Shown: in pieces, positions 14,007 to 28,003 of the stretch
How the letters are laid out: each line of letters starts with the position of its first letter
How positions within the stretch are numbered: position 1 is the stretch's first letter
DNA from: an uncultured Chloroflexia bacterium
Lineage (GTDB): Bacteria; Chloroflexota; Ktedonobacteria; Ktedonobacterales; JADMIN01
Length of the DNA: 32,000 nt
Direction of reading: 5' to 3'
Assembly (NCBI GenBank): GCA_963718915.1
Contig: CAVRAI010000015.1
Span: 510,001 to 542,000, forward strand
Made by a program: the position numbers and the translations under genes
The notes under the pieces: generated by a model
What the model was told of the DNA's origin: nothing
Databases searched by the model: none
Seen by the model: only the letters and a program-made list of their open reading frames with translations

Positions 14007-14684
14007 ATGTCCTTGCCATCGTCTACCACATCCACTGTTCCCCCGCGTCGGCTGATTATCTTCGACCATGACGGGCTGATGGTCAACACCGAGGATGTCG
14101 TCTACGCCGCGCTCGTCCAGCTTTTTGAGGAATATGGCTGCGCGTTTCCGTGGGACTATTACATCACGTCGCTGGGGATGCCTGTCGCGGAGTCGCTGGC
14201 GATGTATCTACGCGACCTGCCGCTCGGTTTGTCGATGGATGAGCTGGTCACGCTCCGCAGCGAACGCGTCCAGGCACGCATAGATACCGACCTGCGCCCG
14301 ATGCCGGGACTCGCGCCACTGCTCGATGCGTTACAAGCGCGCGGCGATCTGCTGGCGGTGGCGACATCCGGGACACGCTCGCACATCGACATGAGCCTGG
14401 TGCGGTTCGGCCTGACCAGCTACTTCGACGCCGTGGTCTGCATCGACGACGTGGCGCGCGGCAAGCCACACCCCGACCTCATCCTGGAGGTGCTCCGACG
14501 TACAGGGGCCGCCGCCAGCGACGCCATCATGCTCGAAGACGCTCCACGCGGCGTCGAGGCCGCCCACCGCGCTGGGGTGTTCTGCATCGCCGTGCCGACC
14601 CACGGCGTCCTTTTGGACGAGTTCGCTCTGGCCTCGGCCATCGCCCGCGATCTTAACGCCGTCCAACGGCTGCTGGTGGGGTAG
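14007..14684 (+). CDS. HAD-superfamily hydrolase, subfamily IA (beta-phosphoglucomutase/phosphatase-like)
   Basis: LIIFDHDGLMVNTE (DxDG motif I), VATSGTR (motif II), GKPHPD (motif III Lys) and LEDAPRGVEAAHRAG (motif IV). Its last 225 nt are repeated at 16282-16506. Confidence 0.9.
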   Translation: MSLPSSTTSTVPPRRLIIFDHDGLMVNTEDVVYAALVQLFEEYGCAFPWDYYITSLGMPVAESLAMYLRDLPLGLSMDELVTLRSERVQARIDTDLRPMPGLAPLLDALQARGDLLAVATSGTRSHIDMSLVRFGLTSYFDAVVCIDDVARGKPHPDLILEVLRRTGAAASDAIMLEDAPRGVEAAHRAGVFCIAVPTHGVLLDEFALASAIARDLNAVQRLLVG

Positions 14685-14685
14685 C
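14461..14685 (+). repeat. Direct repeat copy A (3' end of the HAD gene), partner at 16282-16506
   Basis: Hand alignment of 14461-14685 against 16282-16506 is gap-free with 14 mismatches in 225 nt (about 94%). Both copies end at the same TAG. Confidence 0.9.
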
Positions 14686-14775
14686 GATCAAAAGCCCAGC
14701 ATTAGCCAATGTCTATCTGGCATCATATATCCATACTCGTTCCATTTGATATAGCATGGGCGATCACCTGAAAGA

Positions 14776-14805
14776 TTGACAACCACCTAGAGCGCGATGT
14801 ATTTT
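14776..14805 (+). promoter_or_regulatory. Candidate sigma70-type promoter for the first gene in the insert
   Basis: TTGACA (14776-14781), 18-nt spacer, TATTTT (14800-14805), about 75 nt upstream of ATG 14882 in an AT-rich stretch. Confidence 0.35.
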
Positions 14806-14881
14806 ACATCAGGTTGCTTTGGGTAACCGCCGATTCAGTTCAGGATGTGTTGAAATCGGCGTTTATAGAAAGGCTGTCTTG

Positions 14882-15640
14882 ATGAAGCGGACATGGTATC
14901 GCGCTCTTATCGGCCTCGGATGTTGCGTAATTGCTATTTTCGGTATTATTAGCACCGGGGGCACTACTCAAGCCGCAGCAAATCCTGACCCTACTGTGGT
15001 TGTTGTGCGCGATTCCACGCCTCTTGGATGTTTAGAGCGCCGAGGCCTACTCCAGGGAACTACATGGGTGACAACGTCAACATTCGCTTGTCCAGCGGGT
15101 ACGCGCATGAGTCTTGTGCAGGTGCTGTTGTCCGAGGCAAAAGCTAACCACGAAGCCTATGTGGTAATGCCTTCGCAATCAAGTTCGCGCGCCGAGCAAG
15201 ATGCAGCAATGGTAAATATTCAGGCACTAGCAAAAGCAGCCAATGCAACGTTTCAGTCTGCTAATTCAGTTGTTCCGCTGAGCAGTTGCTCCCCACGCAC
15301 CCAGTATCTAGCCATCTACAATGGCAACACCGCCTGGGATTCGCAGAACAAGTATGACATGAACGTGGACTACGACACCCATTCCGATTGTAGCGTTTAC
15401 ATCCACCTCAGCGCCATTACTGGAGAATACATCCATAGTTACTTCTATTGGGGTTGGGATCTTTATGCTTCATGGCAGTCGCCGAAGCTTTGTACGCCAG
15501 TGACCAACGGTACTAAGGGCTGGAACCCTAATACTACGCACAATTCGGGCTACTATTACGAGCAATGGATGTATAGTGGCTCAAATTGTACCGTGTTCGA
15601 CCACGATTCGTACTACAATGTGGGCCCGTTGTACCCGTAA
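14882..15640 (+). CDS. Secreted orphan protein, Cys- and Tyr/Trp-rich (252 aa)
   Basis: ORF 14819..15640. Start placed at ATG 14882, giving MKRTWYRALIGLGCCVIAIFGIISTGGTTQAAA (signal-peptide-like). The mature part has 8 Cys and aromatic-rich segments (YFYWGWDLYASW, GYYYEQWMY). GC is visibly lower than in flanking genes. No family recognised. Confidence 0.6.
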   Translation: MKRTWYRALIGLGCCVIAIFGIISTGGTTQAAANPDPTVVVVRDSTPLGCLERRGLLQGTTWVTTSTFACPAGTRMSLVQVLLSEAKANHEAYVVMPSQSSSRAEQDAAMVNIQALAKAANATFQSANSVVPLSSCSPRTQYLAIYNGNTAWDSQNKYDMNVDYDTHSDCSVYIHLSAITGEYIHSYFYWGWDLYASWQSPKLCTPVTNGTKGWNPNTTHNSGYYYEQWMYSGSNCTVFDHDSYYNVGPLYP

Positions 15641-15740
15641 ACTAAGTCGACAATTCGCCCCATCGTCGCGGGGAGGTGCCATCCGCCTTAAGAGCCCTCC
15701 CGCGATGGCTCTTATGATGCGAACACAAGGAGCAGAGAGC

Positions 15741-16169
15741 ATGACACAAAGGGTGATCCTCCTAATCAGTGTTTGTATTGCATTGGTTATTGTTATTGCC
15801 GCTGGGACATGGTTGGTACTAAACCCTAATAGCATATTTGCTGCTAATCGCGGCCAATCTATGCCTACTACCGATCAGGTGCGCGGTTCAATACAATGCC
15901 AGACGCCAATCACAACTGCATGTTCTGTGACCATTACCAATGATGCGGTTTCCCACAACACATACGACTGGCAGTTGGTCAGTTTAGCCCCAGCAGCCAC
16001 CCGCAGTTCGTCCTCGTCAGGGACACTGTCTCCCGGCGCTACCGCGAATATTCAGGTAACATACCCTGATGCCATCATGCACATATGCCCAATAATGCTT
16101 ACCTTTTCGATGCGCCCGGAGTCGTCGACCTCGTCTCACAGCTTGGTACTTACATGGCGCTGTTCTTGA
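15741..16169 (+). CDS. Signal-anchored orphan protein (142 aa)
   Basis: ORF 15576..16169. Start placed at ATG 15741, 8 nt after AAGGAG (15727-15732), giving MTQRVILLISVCIALVIVIAAGTWLVL (TM helix). It continues with a Ser/Thr-rich domain containing GTLSPGATANIQVTYP, which looks like a beta-sandwich. No family recognised. Confidence 0.55.
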   Translation: MTQRVILLISVCIALVIVIAAGTWLVLNPNSIFAANRGQSMPTTDQVRGSIQCQTPITTACSVTITNDAVSHNTYDWQLVSLAPAATRSSSSSGTLSPGATANIQVTYPDAIMHICPIMLTFSMRPESSTSSHSLVLTWRCS

Positions 16170-16281
16170 TTTACAGGTTCTTGAGATTCAGTCCTTCCGA
16201 CGACATGGATCCGACTGATTTTTACCTGTGACCAGCCAGAAGTGGGTCTGGCTCGCAGCGCCACCAATGTTGTAACGTGCG

Positions 16282-16505
16282 GCAGGCCACATCCCGACCT
16301 CATCCTGGAGGTTCTGCGGCGCACAGGGGCCGCCGCCAGCGACGCCATCATGCTCGAAGACGCTCCACGCGGCGTCGAAGCGGCCCACCGCGCTGGGGTG
16401 TTCTGCATCGCCGTGCCGACCCACGGCGTCCCTTTGGACGAGTTCGCTCTGGCCTCGGCCATCGCCCGCGATCTCCACGTCGTCCAGCGGCTGCTGGCGG
16501 GGTAG
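16282..16505 (+). pseudogene. Orphan 3' fragment of a HAD hydrolase gene (direct repeat copy B)
   Basis: Encodes GRPHPDLILEVLRRTGAAASDAIMLEDAPRGVEAAHRAGVFCIAVPTHGVPLDEFALASAIARDLHVVQRLLAG. That differs at 5 residues from the C-terminus of the intact gene at 14007..14684. Upstream homology fades after a 5-nt gap (ACGTG[GCGCG]CGGCA). There is no N-terminal HAD domain. Confidence 0.85.
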
Positions 16506-16592: not shown

Positions 16593-17076
16593 GTGGCCTT
16601 CAGGCTACGGCGCGCTCGCCAACGACAACAACTTAGCCGGATTTGGTATGAGCTGCTGTTGCTAAGGATGGATTCCAGCTATATACGCTGTTTCGAGCGC
16701 TCTCCTGTTCTCATCAAACCACGCGCTCAATGGATGGTCCTCCTTCCATGCCCTCTCGATCCCCATCAGACCGCAAATGTTGCGAACGTTGCAAATGCTT
16801 AGTGCTCTCCATGCTCTCCATGCTCGCAGAATCGCTGGCAGAGGCACGTTTGGCCCACAGCGCCCTGCGGGTCACTGCTGAGCGCATGCGGGCAAGATTT
16901 CACCAGTGAATTCATCATATAGGACTAACTAGTGTCAGGTTGCATTACGCATTCTGTCATGTTACTTTTGGCGTACAAGTCCTCGACGAGGGCTGTCTGC
17001 TTGCGCGTTGACACCTGGGGCGCTCGAACGGACGCGGGCAGGCATTGTGTGGTGTGGAGATCGCAAGGAGTGGGGT

Positions 17077-19776
17077 ATGCCGAGAGTATGGACCCGACGA
17101 GCGTTGATCCCGGTAGTCACTATCGTAGCGCTCGCGGCCATCATCACGTCCGTCGCGTTGGTGCGCGGGCAGACCGCGCAGGCAAACACAGCAACCGCTC
17201 GTCCCGGATATTATCAGCGGGACAACGCATTGGTCAATCGTCTTCTGAAAGCGTCTCATCAAACTTCCGCAAGCACGAACGCCGCAGCCGCGAATGTCGC
17301 GAGTGATCCAGACCAGGGCGGCGACGATGATCAGGCGGAGACCCCGGAGCAGTTCGCCTATGCGCAGCGCGCCGCGCCCGGTGGTTATATCGCTCCGTCG
17401 GCGGTCATCAATGGTCAGCAACAGGCCAACAGCATGGCCAGCGCTGGTTCGGGCTTCCCCTGGCAGGAAGTCGGCCCGCGGACGCTCAACAACGGCAACT
17501 ACTTCCCTGAGCCAGTCTCCGGGCGTCTGCTCGCTGTCGCGTTTGATCCGACCAACTCGCACATCATTTATGTTGGATCGGCGCAGGGCGGCATCTGGAA
17601 GACCACCGACGGCGGCCAGCACTGGAAGCCGCTCAGTGACTTCGAGCCTTCGCTGGCGATCAATACCATCGCCATCGATGGCAAGAACCCGAACATCATC
17701 TTCGCGGGTACCGGCGAAGATAACCTTTCGTGCGACTCCTATCAGGGTCAGGGTATCCTGCGTTCCACCGATGGTGGCAACACCTGGAAGGTGTTGGGCA
17801 GAAGTCTCTTCGCGGGTACGGGCATTGGCAACATCTTGCTCGATCCCCGCTATGAGGGCAACGCCAACAACGAGCACCTGATTATCGGCGCGGGTTTCGC
17901 CGGGCGCTCCAATAGCTCGACCGAGTCGTGCGACAATTCGCTGCCCGCTGGCCAGAACCCACCATACGGGGTGTTCACCTCCAACGATGGCGGCCAGAGC
18001 TTCACCGAGACGCTCAGCGTCGGCTCATCCGCGGACTTCCCCTTTGAGCTGGGCACCAGCGATATGGTCATGTCGCCGTCTAACCCGAACGTGATCTATG
18101 CCGCCGAGCAGATCGAGGGCATCTTCAAGAGCACCGACGCAGGCAAGACCTGGACGAACCTCAACACCGCCAGCAGTGGGATGCCCGCTCCTGAGAGCGG
18201 CTTCGACCGCATCCAGCTGGCAATCGCGAAGTCGAATCCCAATGTGTTGTATAGCGCCTACTCGAACGTGGTTTTCCTTGGCACACACATGCAGGCGTTC
18301 CGCACGAACAATGCTGGCACGACCTGGAAGGATTTGACGAGTGTTCCAGATGTCTGCGACGGGCAGTGCTGGTATGACATGCCCATCGCCGTCAGCCCGA
18401 CCGACCCGAACTCGGTCTTCATTGGTGGCAACGCCAACTACTCGTACATCTTTACGCTCTTTGGCGAACCGCCTGACCCAGCCGACTGCGCGACCATCGC
18501 CGCGCTGAGCAATTTGCCCGCCGACTGTAACGCAACCATCGCGAAGTCCACCAACGGCGGCAAGACCTGGCAGGACATCGGCCTCGGTGATGTGGGGACC
18601 AACGGCTTCCCGAAGGGCCAGTACACGCTGCACCCAGACGATCACGCGATTGTCTTTGACCCGAACAATCCAAACATCATGTATACCGGCACCGATGGCG
18701 GCCTGTTCTACACCACGAATGGCGGCCATAGCTGGCATGACCTGAATCCTGGCCTTGGCACCCTCCAGTTCCAGGCCATCTCGGTCAGCCCCAACGGGCA
18801 GATCTTTGGTGGCACGCAGGACAACGGCACGGAGCAATTCAAGCCGTCAACTGGCCAGACGTGGAACAGCGTGGATGGCGGTGACGGCGGCCTGACGCAG
18901 ATCGACCCCTCGAATCCGAACACAATCTACCATACCTATGCTGGCGGGAGTCTAGTGCGCTCTGACGATGACGGCCAGACGTGGAACGAGGTTGACGCTC
19001 CGTTCTTCGACGACTTCGCCTCCTTCTACCCCGCGTTCGCGCTGGCGCAGTCGAAGCCCAGTACGCTCTACTACGGCACCTATCGCATCTGGCGGACGGA
19101 CAATAAGGGCGGAACTGGCGCGGCGTCTGACTGGACGGCCATCAGCCCGGCGCTGGAACCCGCGAACTGCGGCTTCAACTGCATCGTGGATGTCGCCGTC
19201 TCGCCGGTGAATCCGAATGTGGTGGTTGTCGCGGGCGGCGATGGGAAGATCTGGCAGAGCACGAACGCTGATTCGGCCAGCGCAACCTGGACGGCGATCA
19301 ACAACGCGACGACGCCTAACCGCTTCCCGACGCAGATCATCTTCGCGCCAGGCTCGCAGAACACGATCTATATCACGTTCTCGGGCTTCAACAGCAACGC
19401 TGGCTCCTCGGCGCCGGGTCATGTCTTCCGCAGCAGCAATATCGGCGCAGCGGCGCCAACCTTCACCGAGGTTGATGGTCAGAATGGTGGGAACTCGTTC
19501 TTCGCCATCCCCGACCTGCCCACGAACAGCGTGCTCGTAGACCCGCAGTTGCCGAGCGTGCTCTTCGTGGCGGCGGACTACGGCGTCTATGCCTCTCCCG
19601 ATAGCGGCAAGCACTGGTTCCGCATCGACTTCAACCTGCCGCACTCGGAGGTTTACCTGCTTCAGTACAATCAACAAACAATAGCATTGTGGCCGCCACA
19701 CACGGCCGCGGTGTCTGGCAGCTCCCGTTGCCAGGTAGCGCTTCATTCAACCAGTTGGTTCACTAATGGTGGATGA
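17077..19776 (+). CDS. Large secreted Asp-box (BNR) repeat beta-propeller protein (sialidase/sortilin-Vps10/GH74-like fold)
   Basis: ORF 17008..19776. Start placed at ATG 17077, 6 nt after AAGGAG (17065-17070), giving MPRVWTRRALIPVVTIVALAAIITSVALVRGQTAQA (signal). There are at least nine S/T-x-D-x-G-x-T/S-W boxes: TTDGGQHW, STDGGNTW, SNDGGQSF, STDAGKTW, TNNAGTTW, STNGGKTW, TTNGGHSW, SDDDGQTW, SPDSGKHW. The last ~30 codons appear frame-shifted (see findings), and the likely true stop is TAA 19764-19766. Confidence 0.9.
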   Translation: MPRVWTRRALIPVVTIVALAAIITSVALVRGQTAQANTATARPGYYQRDNALVNRLLKASHQTSASTNAAAANVASDPDQGGDDDQAETPEQFAYAQRAAPGGYIAPSAVINGQQQANSMASAGSGFPWQEVGPRTLNNGNYFPEPVSGRLLAVAFDPTNSHIIYVGSAQGGIWKTTDGGQHWKPLSDFEPSLAINTIAIDGKNPNIIFAGTGEDNLSCDSYQGQGILRSTDGGNTWKVLGRSLFAGTGIGNILLDPRYEGNANNEHLIIGAGFAGRSNSSTESCDNSLPAGQNPPYGVFTSNDGGQSFTETLSVGSSADFPFELGTSDMVMSPSNPNVIYAAEQIEGIFKSTDAGKTWTNLNTASSGMPAPESGFDRIQLAIAKSNPNVLYSAYSNVVFLGTHMQAFRTNNAGTTWKDLTSVPDVCDGQCWYDMPIAVSPTDPNSVFIGGNANYSYIFTLFGEPPDPADCATIAALSNLPADCNATIAKSTNGGKTWQDIGLGDVGTNGFPKGQYTLHPDDHAIVFDPNNPNIMYTGTDGGLFYTTNGGHSWHDLNPGLGTLQFQAISVSPNGQIFGGTQDNGTEQFKPSTGQTWNSVDGGDGGLTQIDPSNPNTIYHTYAGGSLVRSDDDGQTWNEVDAPFFDDFASFYPAFALAQSKPSTLYYGTYRIWRTDNKGGTGAASDWTAISPALEPANCGFNCIVDVAVSPVNPNVVVVAGGDGKIWQSTNADSASATWTAINNATTPNRFPTQIIFAPGSQNTIYITFSGFNSNAGSSAPGHVFRSSNIGAAAPTFTEVDGQNGGNSFFAIPDLPTNSVLVDPQLPSVLFVAADYGVYASPDSGKHWFRIDFNLPHSEVYLLQYNQQTIALWPPHTAAVSGSSRCQVALHSTSWFTNGG

Positions 19777-21592: not shown

Positions 21593-21612
21593 TTTTATAG
21601 GGGGTGTGTTCG

Positions 21613-22233
21613 ATGGACGAACCTGCCCGCCCACATGCCAAACGGCAACAGATTCGCACTGGCGCGCAACGGCTTTTCCTGAAGTGGGGGTATGAGCGCG
21701 CCTCGATGGATGCGATTGCCGCCGAGGCACGCGTTTCCAAGCAGACACTCTATCGCTACTACCAGACAAAGGATGCTCTTTTTGTAGACATCCTGCGGCA
21801 GATGACGGTGGGGAGCTTCCTGCGCGAGACGCCTGCGATTGCGGATGAGTCGCCGCTCACCAGCAGCGCCGACCTCGAGGCGGCGCTCGTGGCCTTCATC
21901 ACAAGCGCGAGCGAGTACCTCTTTGCGCCTGCCTACATAGCGATGCTGCGGGTGCTCATCGCCGAGGCTCCACGTTTTCCCGAGCTTGCCGAGCAGATGC
22001 GCTCGACGCTCATCGCGCAGGGGAGCGGCGCCCTCACGCAACTGTTGACTCGCGCCTATCAAACCGGGATCATCGCACAGCCGCCGACAGACGAGATGCT
22101 GCTGCTGGTGGTCGCGCCGTTGCTGGCCTATCTACTCGCCGATGGTTTGATCGCGGGGCACGAGCAGCCGCCAAAACCGCCGCATGAAACCCTGGCGACA
22201 TTTGTCCGCTTTGCTATGGCTGCAATTACCTGA
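21613..22233 (+). CDS. TetR/AcrR-family transcriptional regulator
   Basis: RQQIRTGAQRLFLKWGYERASMDAIAAEARVSKQTLYRYYQTKDALF is the canonical TetR N-terminal HTH. Start is ATG 21613; the ORF track offers GTG 21604. Confidence 0.9.
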   Translation: MDEPARPHAKRQQIRTGAQRLFLKWGYERASMDAIAAEARVSKQTLYRYYQTKDALFVDILRQMTVGSFLRETPAIADESPLTSSADLEAALVAFITSASEYLFAPAYIAMLRVLIAEAPRFPELAEQMRSTLIAQGSGALTQLLTRAYQTGIIAQPPTDEMLLLVVAPLLAYLLADGLIAGHEQPPKPPHETLATFVRFAMAAIT

Positions 22234-22256
22234 GGGTTGCCTGCGATGGGAGGGTC

Positions 22257-22754
22257 ATGCGGATGTCCACGACTGAATCGTTGTTATTGCTGGCCATCGC
22301 CGCCACGGCGCTGGATGGCATATTGGCGGGCGCCAGTCTCGATCAATCTATCAAGCAATTGCCCGCGCGTCGCCGCATCGGCGCAATCGCCTACTCGGTC
22401 TATGCGCGCGCTGCCGATCTGGGGACGGGTATCGTCTGGTACGCTGCGCTCGGAATCGGCGCGGCGCTGCTCACCATCGTCACGGCCATTGTCGCGCTTG
22501 TGCAGCGAGTGCCTACGAGCGTCGCGTTACCGCTGTACCTCGCCGCCGCCGCCAGTCTGGCGCACTCGTTCACCACGTCACGCGCCGCGCCCACGATGCT
22601 CTCCCAGCGCCAAATTGCGGCGACAGTAGAGAACGAACCAAAACTGAAGGCGATCTTCGACAGATTTGAACGCTGGCAGACGGTTCGAGCCATTCTGCAG
22701 TCCGCGACTTTCGCCCTGATGCTCTGGGCGCTAGCAGCCATCGCGCTGGCATGA
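22257..22754 (+). CDS. DUF1772-like (anthrone-oxygenase-like) four-helix membrane protein
   Basis: 165 aa; GGGAGGG lies just upstream of the ATG. Four hydrophobic segments with the family layout (LAGASLDQSIKQLPA..., ...FERWQTVRAILQSATFALMLWAL). Assigned by pattern recall only. Confidence 0.6.
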   Translation: MRMSTTESLLLLAIAATALDGILAGASLDQSIKQLPARRRIGAIAYSVYARAADLGTGIVWYAALGIGAALLTIVTAIVALVQRVPTSVALPLYLAAAASLAHSFTTSRAAPTMLSQRQIAATVENEPKLKAIFDRFERWQTVRAILQSATFALMLWALAAIALA

Positions 22755-22804
22755 CGCTCTCTGGTTGATGATTGGCCAGTTTCTCAGAAGGGGAAGCGCC
22801 GCTC

Positions 22805-23371
22805 ATGAATCTGTATCAACTTGCGCTCTTTCTCCATATCGTCGGCGTCGTCTGTTTCTTCATGCCATTAGGTGTGTATCTCTTCGGCTTGCTGGCGCTA
22901 CGGCGCGCGAGTCAGGCGCAGCAGGTACGCACAGTGTGCCAGGCGATCTTTGCGACCGACGCGGTTGCCGTGGGTGGGATACTGCTGCTGGCAGGCGCGG
23001 GCCTCTACATGGCTATCACAACATGGGGACTGGCTACCGGGTGGGTGCTCGTCGCGATCATCAGTTTCGCATTGATAGCGCCTATTGGCCCCCTGCTGGT
23101 TGAGCGAAGTTTGCACGTTATCGCCAACCTGGCCGCTGAAGCGCCCAACGGGCCACTATCGCGCGAAATCCAACAACGCATCGCCGATCCCGCCATGGGC
23201 GCGGGGCTGCTACTTATGATTGCGTGGCTACTGGGCATTATTTACTTGATGACCACCAAGCCGACGCTACAAGGCGCGATTTTAGCGATGAGCGTCGCGG
23301 CGATTGTGGGCATCCTGACAGGTATGCCGCTCTGGTTCGCCCGTCGGCGCGCGAAAACGGTCACTGGCTGA
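22805..23371 (+). CDS. Integral membrane protein (DUF2269-like)
   Basis: ORF 22772..23371. Start placed at ATG 22805 (MNLYQLALFLHIVGVVCFF...). Four or five hydrophobic helices. The family name is tentative. Confidence 0.55.
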   Translation: MNLYQLALFLHIVGVVCFFMPLGVYLFGLLALRRASQAQQVRTVCQAIFATDAVAVGGILLLAGAGLYMAITTWGLATGWVLVAIISFALIAPIGPLLVERSLHVIANLAAEAPNGPLSREIQQRIADPAMGAGLLLMIAWLLGIIYLMTTKPTLQGAILAMSVAAIVGILTGMPLWFARRRAKTVTG

Positions 23372-23387
23372 TACTCGCGTGGGATGG

Positions 23388-26300
23388 CTATTCCGCCAAG
23401 TCCTCCTTGCCCCCCTCGTTTCCCTCGTCCCCTTCGTCGTCTTCGACGCCGAGCATCGCGTCGATTTCCGCTAGCGCCTGCTCGCGCTCGCGCTGCCAGC
23501 GGCGGAGTGAGAGGCGATGCACCTGCCAGCCCGCGCGCTCCAGAATCGTCTGACCGTTGACCGTATCGAGCGAGACCTCGCCGGGAATCGGCGCGTGGCG
23601 TTCGGGGTCGCCGTCGCAAGCGATGGCCAGCGCTCGCCCGCCGTACTGCGCCACCACGTCCACTGCGAAGCCCGCGACTGGGTAGCCTATATATACCTCG
23701 TAGCCGCCGCGCTGCCGCAGCGCCTGGCCAATCTCGCGCTCGAAGGCGGTGCCACCATCCGTGTGATCCTCGGGACGATCCGGCTCCAGGCATTCCCCCG
23801 CATAGTCGAGGTAGCGGCCCAGCAAATGCTCGGGCGGCAGGTGGCGGGCATCCAGCCCGGTGAAGATCACCTGGCGACGGCGGGCGCGTGTCACCGCGAC
23901 GTTAAAGAGATTGTCGTTATTCATGAAGGTGACGGTGCTGCGGTGTGATGATGGGTCGGCGCAGAAGCTGAGCAGCATAATGTCGCGCTCGTCGCCCTGG
24001 TAGGTATGCGCCGTCCCAATGGCGATGTCGTGGTCCTGAAGAATCTTTGACTTGAGCTTCTGCGCCAGCATCCGCGTCAGATAGTTCACCTGGTCGCGAT
24101 AAGGCGAGAGGACGCCAATGGTCGAGCGTTCGCTGGGGAGCAGCTTCGCCTCGGCTTTGGCGATGTTGTTGATCTCCTTGAGAATCGCCTCAGCCTCCTG
24201 CGGGTTGAAGCCCTCTTTGCCGCGTTTGCCGTTCACCTTGCGCATCTCCACGCTACGAGCGCCGAGTGTATCGGGGCGGCGTGTCATCACGCGCAGCGCC
24301 TGGCCGTAGAATGTGCGGTTGCTGAACTCGATAATCTGCGGCAGGCTGCGATAATGTTCATCCAGCAGGACGACGTCATCCTGCGAGGGCAGCGCGCCGT
24401 TCACCACATCCAGCAGGCTGTGCGTGCGGTAGTTCCACTGCGACCGCTGGCTGGCGGAGAGGCCATGTTGCGAGGCGAGCGCCGCCTGGCGATCCTCGCG
24501 CAGGAACGAGAGATGGCGTAGCTGCTTCGGGTCGCCGCAGACGATGGCCCGCTGGCCGCGATAGAGCAGCGGCAGCGCGCTGGAGACATCACACTGCGAC
24601 GCCTCATCCACGATCACCAGATCGAACATCTCGCGGTCGAGCGGCAGCATCTCGGCGACGTGTGGGTTGGTCGTAGCCCAGATGGGGAACGTGTTGAGCA
24701 GCGCCGAGAAATCCAATTCGGCGAAGATTTTGTCCTGCTCGGCGGTGGTGCGCGCCTCCAGCGCCGTCTTGAAGAGCGAGAGCGTGCGCCGATTGAGCCG
24801 GAGCGCCTCGGCAAGCGCCTCGCGCCGTCGCGCCGCCAGCAACTCACCCACCAGCGCGCCACGGTCCGCGCGCAAGCGGGCATGCCGCGTCAAGAGCGCG
24901 TTCACATCGTCCCGCGCCAGCAACGTGCGCTCGGTCTGTATCAGCCCCGCGCGAAGCTGTTCGCGCCGGAGCACCGCCTCCAGGTGGGGCAGGTCGCTCT
25001 CGGCCAGCCCAATCCGCGAGGCGATGTCGCTGGCGGCCTGCTCGCGTTTGCGTCCGGCCATCCAGCTTACCACAGGCAGTTTGCCGGTGTCGCGGTGGAT
25101 CTCCTCATAGGCAGCTTCGAGCGCCTCCGGGCCGAGCGTGGCTGCTGCCGCCTCATTATAGGCGGGCGGATGGATGCGTCGGAGCGCGGCGACATGCTGT
25201 GTCCAGCGCGTCTCGGCATCCAGCAGGAAGCGAATCTCGGCGTCAAGCTGCGCCAGTTCTTCATCGGCGGCGCGTAGACGGTCTTCGAGCATCTCGATCT
25301 CGCCGGGCCGCGGTCGTGGTGGCGCGCCAGTGCCGTCGAAGAGGTTATCGAGGAATTTCTTCAACTCGTTGCGATAGCGCCGGTCGCCGCCGCGTAGGAT
25401 GACCGTCAGGCTGCCAAGGTGTGGCTGGAGCTTCTCGACGACGACATCTACCGCCTTGTTCATCTTGGAGGAGAGCAGCACCGTCTGCCCGCGCGCCACG
25501 GCGTCCAGGATGATCTGCGCGATGGTGAACGACTTGCCGGTGCCGGGAGGGCCAATCACCAGCGTCAGTGGGCGGCGCTCGGACTGGCGCAGCACGCGCG
25601 TCTGGGCGTTGCTCAACTCCGCGCCACTGAGGATCGGCCGCTCGATCTCCACCTCGGGCAGCATCCCGGTGACGGGGGCGCGCTCGGCGCGGGCGGCGTC
25701 GGTGAAGATGGCGGCGAGCGGCGCCGACATATCGCCGCGTCCGGCCATCATCTGTAGCTCGGTGAGCACGCCACGCGCCTCCTGGGGTCGCCGCACCAGC
25801 GCCATCGCCGAGGCGCAGAGCAACTGCACGGGGCTATCCATCAGGTCGCGCAGGGCCGCCTCGGTCTGTAGCTCCGGCCATGCCTGCAAATCGTCGGTAC
25901 GCAGGTCGGGAATCAGTTCGGCGAGGACGGCGGCGAACTCGCGGATGGCGGCGGTCTCGAAGGGCGCGGTGGGCGCCTGCGCCAGAATCGCCTCGGCGTA
26001 GGCCTGCGCCTGCTCGTCGTTTTCGGCGTCGATCAGCGAGGCCAGCAGCGGGAAGTTGATGTGCTGCTCGTCCAGATCGACGCTCAGATACGCGTGGGAG
26101 CCTTCCTGCTCGATACGCGCGGGCCAGTAGAGCAGTGGCGCGCAGAAGACCTCGCCCTTGCGGCGCGCGGTCTCTGGGCGGCCTCGCCCCACGAGAAAGA
26201 TCGACCCCCAGATGAGGTACTTCTCGCGGCGATTGACGTCGGCGGCGTTCTGCGCGGTGACGCCGGTGCTCAGCGGCACCTCCAGCCGGTCAAGTTGCCC

Positions 26301-26603
26301 GGTGGCCAGCGGCTCGACGCCATCGGCGAAGACCAGATATTCCGCCTGGTTCTTATCGAGGATGTTGGTGAGGGTGCCTCCGCGTGAGTCGGCGGAGAAG
26401 CAGTCCTGGAAGTAGCGACAGACCCCGGAAAAGAGCGAGGATGTTGGCCCCGGCGGCATTGGGCGCGCGGGAATGGCGCCGCCCTCGACCCACTGGCCGA
26501 CCGGCGTGAGGTCAGCGCGCGCGACGACATCCACCACTACGGGCTGAATCGGCGGGCGCTCGCGCGGGTCGTCGTCAGTCTGCCTTCCACGTCGAAATAC
26601 CAT
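23388..26603 (-). CDS. Superfamily-1 (Upf1/DNA2-like, AAA_11+AAA_12) helicase with C-terminal DUF559/Vsr-like endonuclease-fold domain
   Basis: ORF 23388..26783. Start moved to ATG 26603 because GAGGAGG lies about 8 nt upstream on the minus strand. Motifs: VIGPPGTGKS (encoded near 25535-25555), VIVDEASQ (near 24595-24617), CGDPKQL, YRSLPQIIEFSN, IGVLSPYRDQV, GTAHTYQGDERD, NVAVTRARR. C-terminus: FEREIGQALRQRGGYEVYIGYPVAGFAVDVVAQYGGRALAIACDGDPERH, followed by an acidic tail. Confidence 0.9.
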   Translation of the reverse strand: MVFRRGRQTDDDPRERPPIQPVVVDVVARADLTPVGQWVEGGAIPARPMPPGPTSSLFSGVCRYFQDCFSADSRGGTLTNILDKNQAEYLVFADGVEPLATGQLDRLEVPLSTGVTAQNAADVNRREKYLIWGSIFLVGRGRPETARRKGEVFCAPLLYWPARIEQEGSHAYLSVDLDEQHINFPLLASLIDAENDEQAQAYAEAILAQAPTAPFETAAIREFAAVLAELIPDLRTDDLQAWPELQTEAALRDLMDSPVQLLCASAMALVRRPQEARGVLTELQMMAGRGDMSAPLAAIFTDAARAERAPVTGMLPEVEIERPILSGAELSNAQTRVLRQSERRPLTLVIGPPGTGKSFTIAQIILDAVARGQTVLLSSKMNKAVDVVVEKLQPHLGSLTVILRGGDRRYRNELKKFLDNLFDGTGAPPRPRPGEIEMLEDRLRAADEELAQLDAEIRFLLDAETRWTQHVAALRRIHPPAYNEAAAATLGPEALEAAYEEIHRDTGKLPVVSWMAGRKREQAASDIASRIGLAESDLPHLEAVLRREQLRAGLIQTERTLLARDDVNALLTRHARLRADRGALVGELLAARRREALAEALRLNRRTLSLFKTALEARTTAEQDKIFAELDFSALLNTFPIWATTNPHVAEMLPLDREMFDLVIVDEASQCDVSSALPLLYRGQRAIVCGDPKQLRHLSFLREDRQAALASQHGLSASQRSQWNYRTHSLLDVVNGALPSQDDVVLLDEHYRSLPQIIEFSNRTFYGQALRVMTRRPDTLGARSVEMRKVNGKRGKEGFNPQEAEAILKEINNIAKAEAKLLPSERSTIGVLSPYRDQVNYLTRMLAQKLKSKILQDHDIAIGTAHTYQGDERDIMLLSFCADPSSHRSTVTFMNNDNLFNVAVTRARRRQVIFTGLDARHLPPEHLLGRYLDYAGECLEPDRPEDHTDGGTAFEREIGQALRQRGGYEVYIGYPVAGFAVDVVAQYGGRALAIACDGDPERHAPIPGEVSLDTVNGQTILERAGWQVHRLSLRRWQREREQALAEIDAMLGVEDDEGDEGNEGGKEDLAE

Positions 26604-26802
26604 GAGTGCTGCCTCCTCGTACCGCCTGCGCGCCACGTTATGTTCGGGCATGTAGCGCGCACCCGGCAGCAGGCAGTGTAGGCACGGCGGCTGGCGACCG
26701 TCAATCTTGTGCCCATTATGGGCCAGTACCCATGGGCGATGACGAGGCAAAAGCACGCCGCTGGGGAGCGATGTCGGTGGCATGGTGTCATCGTCGAAGC
26801 TC

Positions 26803-26874: not shown

Positions 26875-27671
26875 ATGTCCCAACCTTTTCCGCAACGTCG
26901 GCCACTGCTCTTTATCGGCCTGCTTCTGTTTCTTATACTCGGTATATTCCTCATCACATTCGCTGTAACCGCACTCGGGCATTGGCCAGTGACCGCAGCC
27001 AGCCTTATCAGTGAAATTTTGCTGGGCCTGGTCGCCGTGTTCTTGCTCAGCCGTTTCCAATGGTGGCATGTCGCCGGATTTCGTATGCCTCGGTATTCTC
27101 CGGCCTTCTTATGTCTGCTAGCGCCGTGTTTTGTCCTGGTTACCGATGCCAATACTGTATCCCAGTATTGGGACTATCTCCCTGGCCGCAACAATGCCCT
27201 GTTCTTCGCCATCTTTGCGATGTTGGTTGGCTTTGTCGAAGAAAACTACTTTCGCTGGGCTGATACTGCGTACTCTCCTGGTGAGAGGGCCATGGTTGGC
27301 AGCCATCGTCTCGTCCGTTGTATTCGGCGCGATGCACCTGTTACATCTTATCGAAGGACAGAATCTGGTCGCAACGGCTATCCCAGGCCATCTGGGCGAC
27401 GGCCCTCGGCTTCCTCTTCGCCGCCGTAGCTCTGCGCACCCAAAGCATCCTGCCGCTGATCATAATCCATGGATTGATCGACTTTGTTGCGTTCCTTGCC
27501 CTCAACGGCACGGTCATCACCTACACCCCGAGTTCTGGCGACGTCACAGAGACTGTCGTCGAAGTGCTCGTATACGTCACGCTCGGCATCATCGCGATGC
27601 GCGGAATACACACGCCTGACCTCGAACCCGATCCCGATGGTCGTGACGGGAAGCTGGTCGAGGTGAGGTGA
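26875..27671 (+). pseudogene. CPBP-family intramembrane glutamic endopeptidase (CAAX protease / Abi family), two frame breaks as sequenced
   Basis: Three consecutive frames together encode one typical CPBP protein. Frame of 26875: ...FAMLVGFVEENYFR (EExxxR motif). Frame of 27131: GLILRTLLVRGPWLAAIVSSVVFGAMHLLHL (FxxxH motif). Frame of 27318: SQAIWATALGFLFAAVALRTQSILPLIIIHGLIDF (HxxxD/N motif). The breaks lie at about 27256-27259 (TGGG) and 27382-27384 (CCC). GC is lower than in neighbours: 30 of 60 at 26881-26940. Confidence 0.8.
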
Positions 27672-28003
27672 GCCACAGCACTGACATCTACGTGCTGGGG
27701 CATCTGGCCTACGAGACCGATGAGAACGGGACGGTGCTCGCCACCTTCACCTATGACAGTATGGGCGTGCCGGTCAGCGTCCGAGTGGGCAACGACCCGA
27801 ACAGTTCGCCACGCTACTATTACGTCTACAACGGCCATGGCGATGTGGTGGCACTGTTGGATGCCCAAGGCAACAGTGCCACCAGCTACGCCTACGATAC
27901 CTTCGGCTAGTTGACCTCAGCCTCCGAGAACTTCGGCAGTGGGACGACCTGGACCAATCCCTACCGCTATGACGTGCGCGCCGACACTGAGAGGCGCTTG
28001 TGA
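27668..28003 (+). pseudogene. Rhs/YD-repeat protein fragment (no N-terminus, no toxin tip, internal stop)
   Basis: HLAYETDENGTVLATFTYDSMGVPVSV...YYYVYNGHGDVVALLDAQGNSATSYAYDTFG then TAG (27908-27910). The same frame continues ...TWTNPYRYDVRADTERRL then TGA (28001-28003). These are YD repeats and a decayed version of the NPYRY..(TD.ETGLYY) region near the Rhs core end. Confidence 0.7.

Follow-up and report, generated by a model that had tools for sequence, protein, structure and literature searches.

Hhe (HheA), which forms a single-gene anti-phage system, is a protein that combines a DUF4011-type N-terminal region, a Upf1-like superfamily 1 (SF1) helicase core with an insert in its first RecA domain (RecA1) and a C-terminal nuclease domain of the Vsr type (Pfam MTES_1575). 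The authentic protein, which we took from a Klebsiella plasmid and an Escherichia coli chromosome, is 1,911 amino acids (aa) long, with DUF4011 at residues 30-308, Walker A near residue 430, motif II near 1380 and MTES_1575 at 1683-1780; 302 of 5,426 E. coli genomes carry its gene, which also lies on plasmids beside insertion sequence (IS) elements. We note that the hhe copies of the Klebsiella plasmid and of E. coli chromosomes share more than 99% identity, which fits a recent horizontal spread, possibly as a two-gene unit; the same DUF262-domain gene precedes it on the plasmid (locus L083) and on the chromosome (L086). Here we consider a gene encoding a protein of similar layout and about half that length, on the minus strand of a 32,000-nucleotide (nt) stretch of DNA (positions 510,001 to 542,000 of contig CAVRAI010000015.1, assembly GCA_963718915.1; hereafter the window) from an uncultured Chloroflexia bacterium of the order Ktedonobacterales. 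An initial annotation had likened this gene to Hhe, a system it credited to the PADLOC survey; the first report is said to be that of Gao et al. 2020, with PADLOC and DefenseFinder only including Hhe. We have found that the gene behaves as a resident chromosomal gene outside islands, and we put at about one in two the probability that its product is a vertically inherited helicase carrying a repurposed Vsr-like nuclease fold that mainly binds nucleic acid.

The window protein and Hhe have their modules in the same order, and the motifs of their nuclease domains align residue for residue (FxxDxx ... I-x-C-D-G ... ILERxGW). They differ in length (1,071 against 1,911 aa), in the gap between Walker A and motif II (315 against ~950 residues), in the catalytic Glu of Hhe (E1731), which is Ala in the window protein, and in DUF4011, which goes undetected at threshold here; hhe is also an accessory gene, whereas the window gene is lineage-conserved among metabolic genes. 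The best PADLOC matches are the candidate system PDC-S37 (1.4e-54), MkoC, MkoA and Hhe, and the best NCBIfam matches are ProA and Hhe. The Hhe model NF042953 gives 118.4 bits (residues 634-1047 against profile positions 1256-1676 of 1797; curated cut-off 2000 bits), the PADLOC Hhe profile PDLC02194 gives 86 bits (positions 1356-1776 of 1911), ProA NF058533 gives 197.5 bits (residues 649-1052 against positions 1293-1704 of 1903; curated cut-off 1500 bits) and PDC-S37, judged on the profile match without PADLOC coverage rules, gives 183.5 bits (positions 927-1343 of 1,550). The scores amount to 6-13% of the curated ProA and Hhe cut-offs, and the Hhe, ProA and PDC-S37 matches are all limited to the C-terminal ~400 residues, that is, to RecA2 and the nuclease-like domain (residues 649-1056 for ProA and PDC-S37, with ~410 of 1,550-1,903 profile positions matched), so that neither at full length nor at cut-off does the protein belong to any of the three. 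The likeness to Hhe thus stands as far as the module order and the type of the closest defence profiles are concerned, and fails on score (118 against 2000 bits) and on length, with Pfam DUF4011 undetected in this protein. Because the order is the same, the length about half and the scores far below the cut-offs, we regard the protein, on profile evidence, as a compact divergent variant of the DUF4011/SF1/MTES_1575 architecture and not as Hhe, ProA or PDC-S37. A literature search returned no paper on PDC-S37 or ProA. The protein does not belong to Mokosh (MkoA/MkoC) either, since those matches cover the helicase core only, the phospholipase D (PLD) nuclease domain of type II is absent and no conserved partner gene, as MkoB/MkoC are in type I, was found. 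The founding example of the nuclease-like domain, MTES_1575 of Microbacterium testaceum (Anantharaman et al. 2013, PMC3710099), likewise joins an SF1 helicase to this Vsr-type restriction endonuclease (REase) domain; it exceeds 2,100 aa and contains a transglutaminase, two winged helix-turn-helix (wHTH) domains and a HEPN domain, none of which is found in the window protein.

The nuclease-like domain lies at the C terminus of the protein, where the initial annotation had seen the layout of a Vsr/DUF559-like nuclease. MTES_1575 matches this segment with 47.7 bits (52.6 for the isolated domain), above the Pfam gathering cut-off of 38.2 bits, and also matches 41 of 52 diverse family members. An AlphaFold model of residues 912-1071 (predicted local distance difference test, pLDDT, 87.7) has the alpha-beta-beta-beta-alpha-beta REase core and superposes on 3hrl (NGO0050, a DUF559-like protein) with a template-modelling (TM) score of 0.82, a root-mean-square deviation (rmsd) of 2.3 A and a probability of 1.0; it also matches I-Bth0305I (3r3p, a Vsr-like homing endonuclease), Hjc resolvases and chains of the Toxoplasma gondii mitoribosome. 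These structural matches bear out the Vsr-type fold prediction; a sequence search of the domain against the PDB returned chance matches only. RAP-domain proteins from these T. gondii mitoribosome entries are weakly matched in sequence (E 0.3) by the canonical Hhe domain, and we group RAP domains with the DUF559/Vsr-like fold. The window domain differs from DUF559/Vsr-like enzymes in being a C-terminal appendage of a helicase and in lacking the Glu, His and Arg of E-x-D-G-x-x-H ... R.

Canonical domains read D ... I-E-C-D-G-x-x-H ... R-Q, and in the alignment the I-E-C-D-G of Hhe falls on I-A-C-D-G of the window protein, the reading first given for this motif. In Hhe, the substitution E1731A abolishes defence (preprint, 10.1101/2022.06.16.496414). 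The Glu of I-E-C-D-G is residue 1727 in the RefSeq numbering and there is no other Glu nearby, while an in-frame ATG four codons upstream in hhe (M-E-N-I-M) would move it to 1731; we infer that the two are the same residue. Aligned with E1731, A995 would then be a natural loss-of-function substitution. It is also a fixed one: among the 66 closely related proteins analysed as group A, the window protein included, position 995 is Ala in 66/66, with Asp at D982 in 65/66 and at D997 in 66/66. Sister group B (16 proteins) has Glu at 995 and Asp at 997 in 16/16, with Pro at the D982 position in all of them, and the more distant group C (20 proteins) has Asp at both the 982 and 995 positions in 20/20 and Ile or Val at that of D997 in 20/20. 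The acidic triad is incomplete in each clade, at a different position every time, a pattern suggesting that catalysis became dispensable. Group A no longer has the canonical His and Arg either (the His position is variable and the Arg has become Gly), so that of the complete constellation D ... E-x-D-G-x-x-H ... R the window protein keeps D982 and D997. The suspicion already voiced in the initial annotation, that the nuclease may be inactive, is therefore strengthened by the Ala at the E1731 position in every close relative, although inactivity is not proven, because D982, D997 and D999 remain, each in at least 65 of the 66 group A proteins. Given the fixed change from Glu to Ala and the alternating losses in sister clades, we think it somewhat more probable that the Vsr-like domain binds nucleic acid than that it cleaves it as in Hhe.

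The motor to which this domain is attached appears intact. Pfam places AAA_11 at residues 334-696 (1.7e-22) and AAA_12 at 741-914 (1.9e-26); Walker A and DEASQ are 315 codons apart, close to the ~310 first estimated, and the complete set of downstream motifs noted earlier is there (III, V and VI). The insert between them, first described as rich in Arg, Glu, Leu and Ala, breaks the AAA_11 match in two and consists of these four residues to 55%, compared with 41% over the whole protein; an insertion in RecA1 is typical of Upf1-like SF1B helicases. The SF1 motifs are all invariant across the family alignments, and motifs I, Ia, II (DExxQ), III, V and VI, together with similarity to the closest solved relatives IGHMBP2, UPF1, DNA2 and Sen1 (E 1e-17 to 1e-15), place the motor in the Upf1-like SF1B group. 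To judge from these motifs it is almost certainly active and driven by ATP, and a Upf1-like motor would translocate 5'-3' along single-stranded DNA or RNA, the polarity being that of the family. The eukaryotic and archaeal helicases of this group (UPF1, IGHMBP2, Sen1/SETX and DNA2) have the motor core and motif set in common with the window protein; unlike it, they have neither a DUF4011-like N-terminal domain nor a Vsr-like C-terminal domain, and DNA2 carries its nuclease, of another PD-(D/E)xK type, at the N terminus and not at the C terminus.

The N-terminal region, in which no feature had at first been recognized, is not featureless: residues 56-300 are modelled as a confident alpha/beta domain (pLDDT 80.8), with C68, D72, E127, P156, N183 and E282 conserved family-wide, and relatives match DUF4011 below threshold. 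The Pfam search proposed for this protein did find AAA_11, AAA_12 and MTES_1575, but DUF4011 went undetected in it, even at E<=10 for residues 1-331. Among the 52 diverse family members, 19 match DUF4011, at best with E 3.8e-5 and with most listed scores below gathering, and all of these matches fall at profile positions 99-158, equivalent to window residues ~127-185 (EKYLIWGSIFLVGRG...CAPLLYWPARIE). Alignments made with hhalign between the family N-terminal profile and single N-termini (Klebsiella Hhe, a Sphingobium DUF3320 protein and an Acinetobacter protein) were not significant (E 0.1-0.3) and nevertheless paired CAPLLYWPARIE with YAPLFTIPVRCE. A Foldseek search of the model against the PDB gave no significant match (best E 0.33, with weak similarity to EndoMS and SPARDA), and one against BFVD gave a single match, to the N-terminus of a phage 'AAA domain protein'. 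The domain is thus at best a divergent DUF4011-like module, as far as sequence comparison can tell.

The closest proteins all come from metagenome-assembled genomes (MAGs) of uncultured Ktedonobacterales (Chloroflexota). Group A proteins are 65-96% identical to the window protein and those of group B 55-58%, while group C (28-42% identical, ~905-940 aa) is spread over Acidobacteriota, Bacteroidota, Verrucomicrobiota, Planctomycetota, Nitrospirota and other phyla. Among 1.84 billion representative proteins, more than 150 clusters (50% identity) were matched by a profile over the full length at more than 890 bits, placing the window protein in a sizeable family; a second homologue search with the family profile returned a nearly identical list, and none of the curated NCBIfam models covers the family above its cut-off. 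Within this large unnamed family, whose proteins are ~900-1,070 aa long, the window protein belongs to the branch of the Ktedonobacterales. A scan of one genome per GTDB species, which also yielded the group C proteins, located the gene in ~45 species-level genomes of Ktedonobacterales; no cultured member of the Ktedonobacteria was among the best 80 matches, and the gene is thus not universal. In three long-read MFD MAGs (loci L034, L036 and L070) the helicase appears as two adjacent or split open reading frames (ORFs), which likely reflect frameshift errors and not tandem duplication. A scan of viral contigs gave distant helicase-nucleases but no close member of the family; a possible member of group C is L088 (IMGVR_UViG_3300048835_000780), the sole match in the viral collection that spans residues 61-1031, at 33% identity.

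Every domain of the protein is under strong purifying selection. Compared with five species at 90-96% identity, the ratio of nonsynonymous to synonymous substitution rates (dN/dS) lies at 0.06-0.10 over the whole gene, at 0.03-0.06 in the helicase core and at 0.01-0.11 in the Vsr-like domain, and only the acidic tail evolves near neutrality. The helicase is the most conserved gene of its neighbourhood (96% identity, against 80-92% for shared flanking genes) and in 18 of 22 locus pairs is better conserved than the median of the shared flanking genes. Within sub-clades the surrounding genes keep their order, which drifts with distance, as fits vertical descent with rearrangement. Its neighbours in the window encode an SDR protein, a CPBP protease, a DUF2269 membrane protein, a TetR regulator and an alpha/beta hydrolase; around the orthologue OJF49_004688 in the complete genome CP126532 lie homogentisate-pathway genes and the genes of a peptidase and an amidase, and in group C the neighbours are rpsA, HIT, GDPD, MFS and rhodanese genes, or HAD and FGGY genes, or aroE. 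When 150 non-redundant neighbours of the Ktedonobacterales loci were scanned with PADLOC, no family recurred and only singletons were found (TnpB/Cas12f-like, mad2/3, a type IV REase and an AriA-like ATPase). A two-gene system is ruled out, as no neighbour recurs across loci. By the standard of the initial annotation itself, a conserved syntenic position with a housekeeping-type distribution would speak against a defence gene, and this is largely what we observe: ~45 Ktedonobacterales genomes with the gene, synteny within sub-clades, housekeeping or metabolic neighbours and no recurrent partner.

It is possible that the protein is nonetheless a single-gene anti-phage protein, a miniaturised Hhe that senses phage replication or recombination intermediates and still cuts nucleic acid through a rearranged site (D982, D997 and D999, with or without E1001), although we consider this rather unlikely. 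Its best matches in defence libraries are indeed PDC-S37, the Mokosh helicases and Hhe, with ProA and Hhe in NCBIfam, and its domain order is that of Hhe; the scatter of the wider family over many phyla, the purifying selection on the Vsr-like domain and the retention of the three Asp residues in group A would all fit. Those library matches, however, stay at 6-13% of the curated cut-offs and within the C-terminal ~400 residues, and the Glu that is vital to Hhe defence is absent from all 66 close relatives. The neighbours are neither defence genes nor mobile elements and include no recurrent partner, the gene outconserves its flanks and keeps its synteny in sub-clades, while Hhe itself is patchy (302/5,426) and linked to plasmids and IS elements, and no close member turned up on viral contigs. 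Chromosomal context, vertical inheritance and strong conservation would suit a helicase-nuclease with housekeeping duties in DNA repair or recombination, in the manner of Dna2 or AddAB, whose nuclease site, non-canonical but working, would act on DNA ends or 5' flaps; both the relation of the core to DNA2 and the conservation of the Vsr-like domain with two or three acids speak for it. We hold this to be improbable, since three clades that each lack a different acid of the triad are hard to square with one catalytic mechanism and group A has in addition lost the canonical His and Arg; nor are repair genes linked among the neighbours examined, and the cultured Ktedonobacteria are missing from the best 80 genome matches. 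The lost Glu, and frameshifts in the adjoining CPBP gene, might be taken to mean that the gene is a decaying, non-functional remnant of a former defence gene, a reading that is effectively refuted by the dN/dS values and the intact motifs and to which we give almost no weight: the ORF of 1,071 codons is intact, the motor motifs are invariant and there are ~100 clusters of intact orthologues.

We therefore return to the reading to which we gave even odds, that of a resident, vertically inherited helicase with a repurposed Vsr-like fold. The protein would be an ATP-driven SF1B motor built from a DUF4011-like N-terminal domain, a RecA1 with a helical insert, RecA2 and a C-terminal Vsr-like fold, in which the N-terminal and Vsr-like domains might act as modules for recognizing or clamping nucleic acid. 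The Vsr-like domain would be nuclease-dead or much weakened and would work like the RAP-type domains of the same fold, and the role in the cell would be resident maintenance or surveillance of nucleic acid and not a horizontally traded, nuclease-dependent defence in the style of Hhe. Several points weigh against this. Two or three acids (D982, D997 and D999) stay near the site, PD-(D/E)xK enzymes can relocate their catalytic residues and Vsr itself is not known to have an acid at the Glu position, so that a residual or altered nuclease activity may persist; retained catalysis would explain the strong conservation of the domain no less than binding would. All of the nearest profile matches are to defence proteins, the comparison with flanking genes rests on crude gene calling, and the ~45 species-level genomes are a count of carriers and not a share of all Ktedonobacterales genomes. 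Finally, a place in the core genome does not preclude a role in defence: Pseudomonas aeruginosa has a DUF4011 gene in its core, although that gene has not been shown to be defensive (PMC10250203).

The features of the gene are collected in Table 1. Read from the furthest start, the minus-strand ORF 23388..26783 would encode 1131 aa. Because the members of ~100 clusters of homologues, 1020-1080 aa in length throughout, have their N terminus (M-x-F-R-R) where the ATG at 26603 would place it, that ATG and the 1,071-aa product first described are the right call, and the longer start at 26783 is ruled out.

Table 1. Coordinates of the helicase gene and of features of its product (positions in the window; residues of the 1,071-aa protein)
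Feature	Positions	Strand	Basis
Complete coding sequence, 1,071 aa plus stop; compact protein with predicted DUF4011-like, Upf1-like SF1 helicase and Vsr-like parts	23388..26603	-	Homologue N-termini support the start
Sigma-70-like promoter match 5' of ATG 26603 (weak evidence)	26675..26704	-	Promoter-like site
Residues 1-55, N-terminal leader, predicted disordered, poorly conserved	26439..26603	-	pLDDT 41-49; variable in alignment
Residues 56-330, ordered alpha/beta N-terminal domain, putative divergent DUF4011-like module	25614..26438	-	Model; DUF4011 matches of relatives
Residues 351-358, helicase motif I / Walker A, GPPGTGKS	25530..25553	-	Invariant in family
Residues 401-640, Arg/Glu/Leu/Ala-rich helical insert in RecA1, motif Ia to motif II	24684..25403	-	55% Arg+Glu+Leu+Ala; splits AAA_11
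Residues 641-930, remaining helicase core with motifs II, III, V and VI; RecA2 = AAA_12	23814..24683	-	Pfam; motifs
Residues 666-670, helicase motif II, DEASQ	24594..24608	-	Motif reading
Residues 954-1050, Vsr/DUF559-type REase fold (Pfam MTES_1575), acidic site incomplete	23454..23744	-	Pfam; model
Residues 994-998, I-A-C-D-G; A995 in place of the Glu equivalent to Hhe E1731	23610..23624	-	Alignment
Residues 1051-1071, acidic Gly/Glu/Asp tail, almost neutral evolution	23391..23453	-	dN/dS 0.4-1.0

The gene stands alone, as described earlier: on its 3' side it converges with the gene of the DUF2269 membrane protein, the ORF ends of the two (23388 for the helicase, 23371 for its neighbour) being 16 nt apart, and on its 5' side it diverges from an Rce1/CPBP gene starting at 26875. 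We note that this Rce1/CPBP gene (26875-27671, plus strand) runs through all three frames with two frameshifts, near 27240-27255 and 27376, and that the window copy is 67-74% identical to its intact orthologue of 266 aa at locus L004, compared with 96% for the adjacent helicase; it is either a pseudogene or the product of assembly errors. Abutting its end, in a stretch of lower GC content (57-58%), an 80-aa ORF (27668-27910, plus strand) matches the RHS repeat PF05593 (3.5e-07) and has the look of an orphan piece of an RHS/YD toxin gene. A TetR regulator, a 165-aa membrane ORF and the DUF2269 protein (21604-23371, plus strand) separate the helicase from the alpha/beta-hydrolase gene. In the 96%-identical relative (L004/L006) the hydrolase gene directly follows the helicase, and L008 has the three additional genes; this three-gene difference is an indel polymorphism 3' of the helicase gene. 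Elsewhere in the window, positions 14500-16500 have a GC content of 0.50-0.55, compared with ~0.62 in the rest, and may be foreign DNA or an island, and a 922-aa protein with Sortilin-Vps10/BNR (Asp-box) repeats is encoded at 17008-19776 (plus strand), a shorter relative of which occupies the same relative position at L004.

Mechanistically, nothing in our reading is unprecedented; it is the unnamed family and its natural change from Glu to Ala that may be useful for understanding Hhe-type proteins. Helicase-nuclease fusions of the Hhe and ProA type are increasingly annotated as defence on domain content alone, and here a half-size relative with the domain order of Hhe behaves as a resident chromosomal gene and is naturally fixed for the very substitution by which Hhe is inactivated. 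The reversion A995E, together with groups A, B and C, would offer a natural experiment on the role of the Vsr-like domain in such proteins. More tentatively, the widespread compact family might be the chromosomal, vertically inherited counterpart of the Hhe-type defence proteins, in which the nuclease was converted to a non-catalytic binding module at least three times independently, each time through loss of a different acid, which would mirror in bacteria the RAP domains of organelles. If our reading is right, it would caution against calling defence from architecture, and it would point to an uncharacterised family of bacterial helicases, present in many phyla, that have put their nuclease-like domain to a new use.

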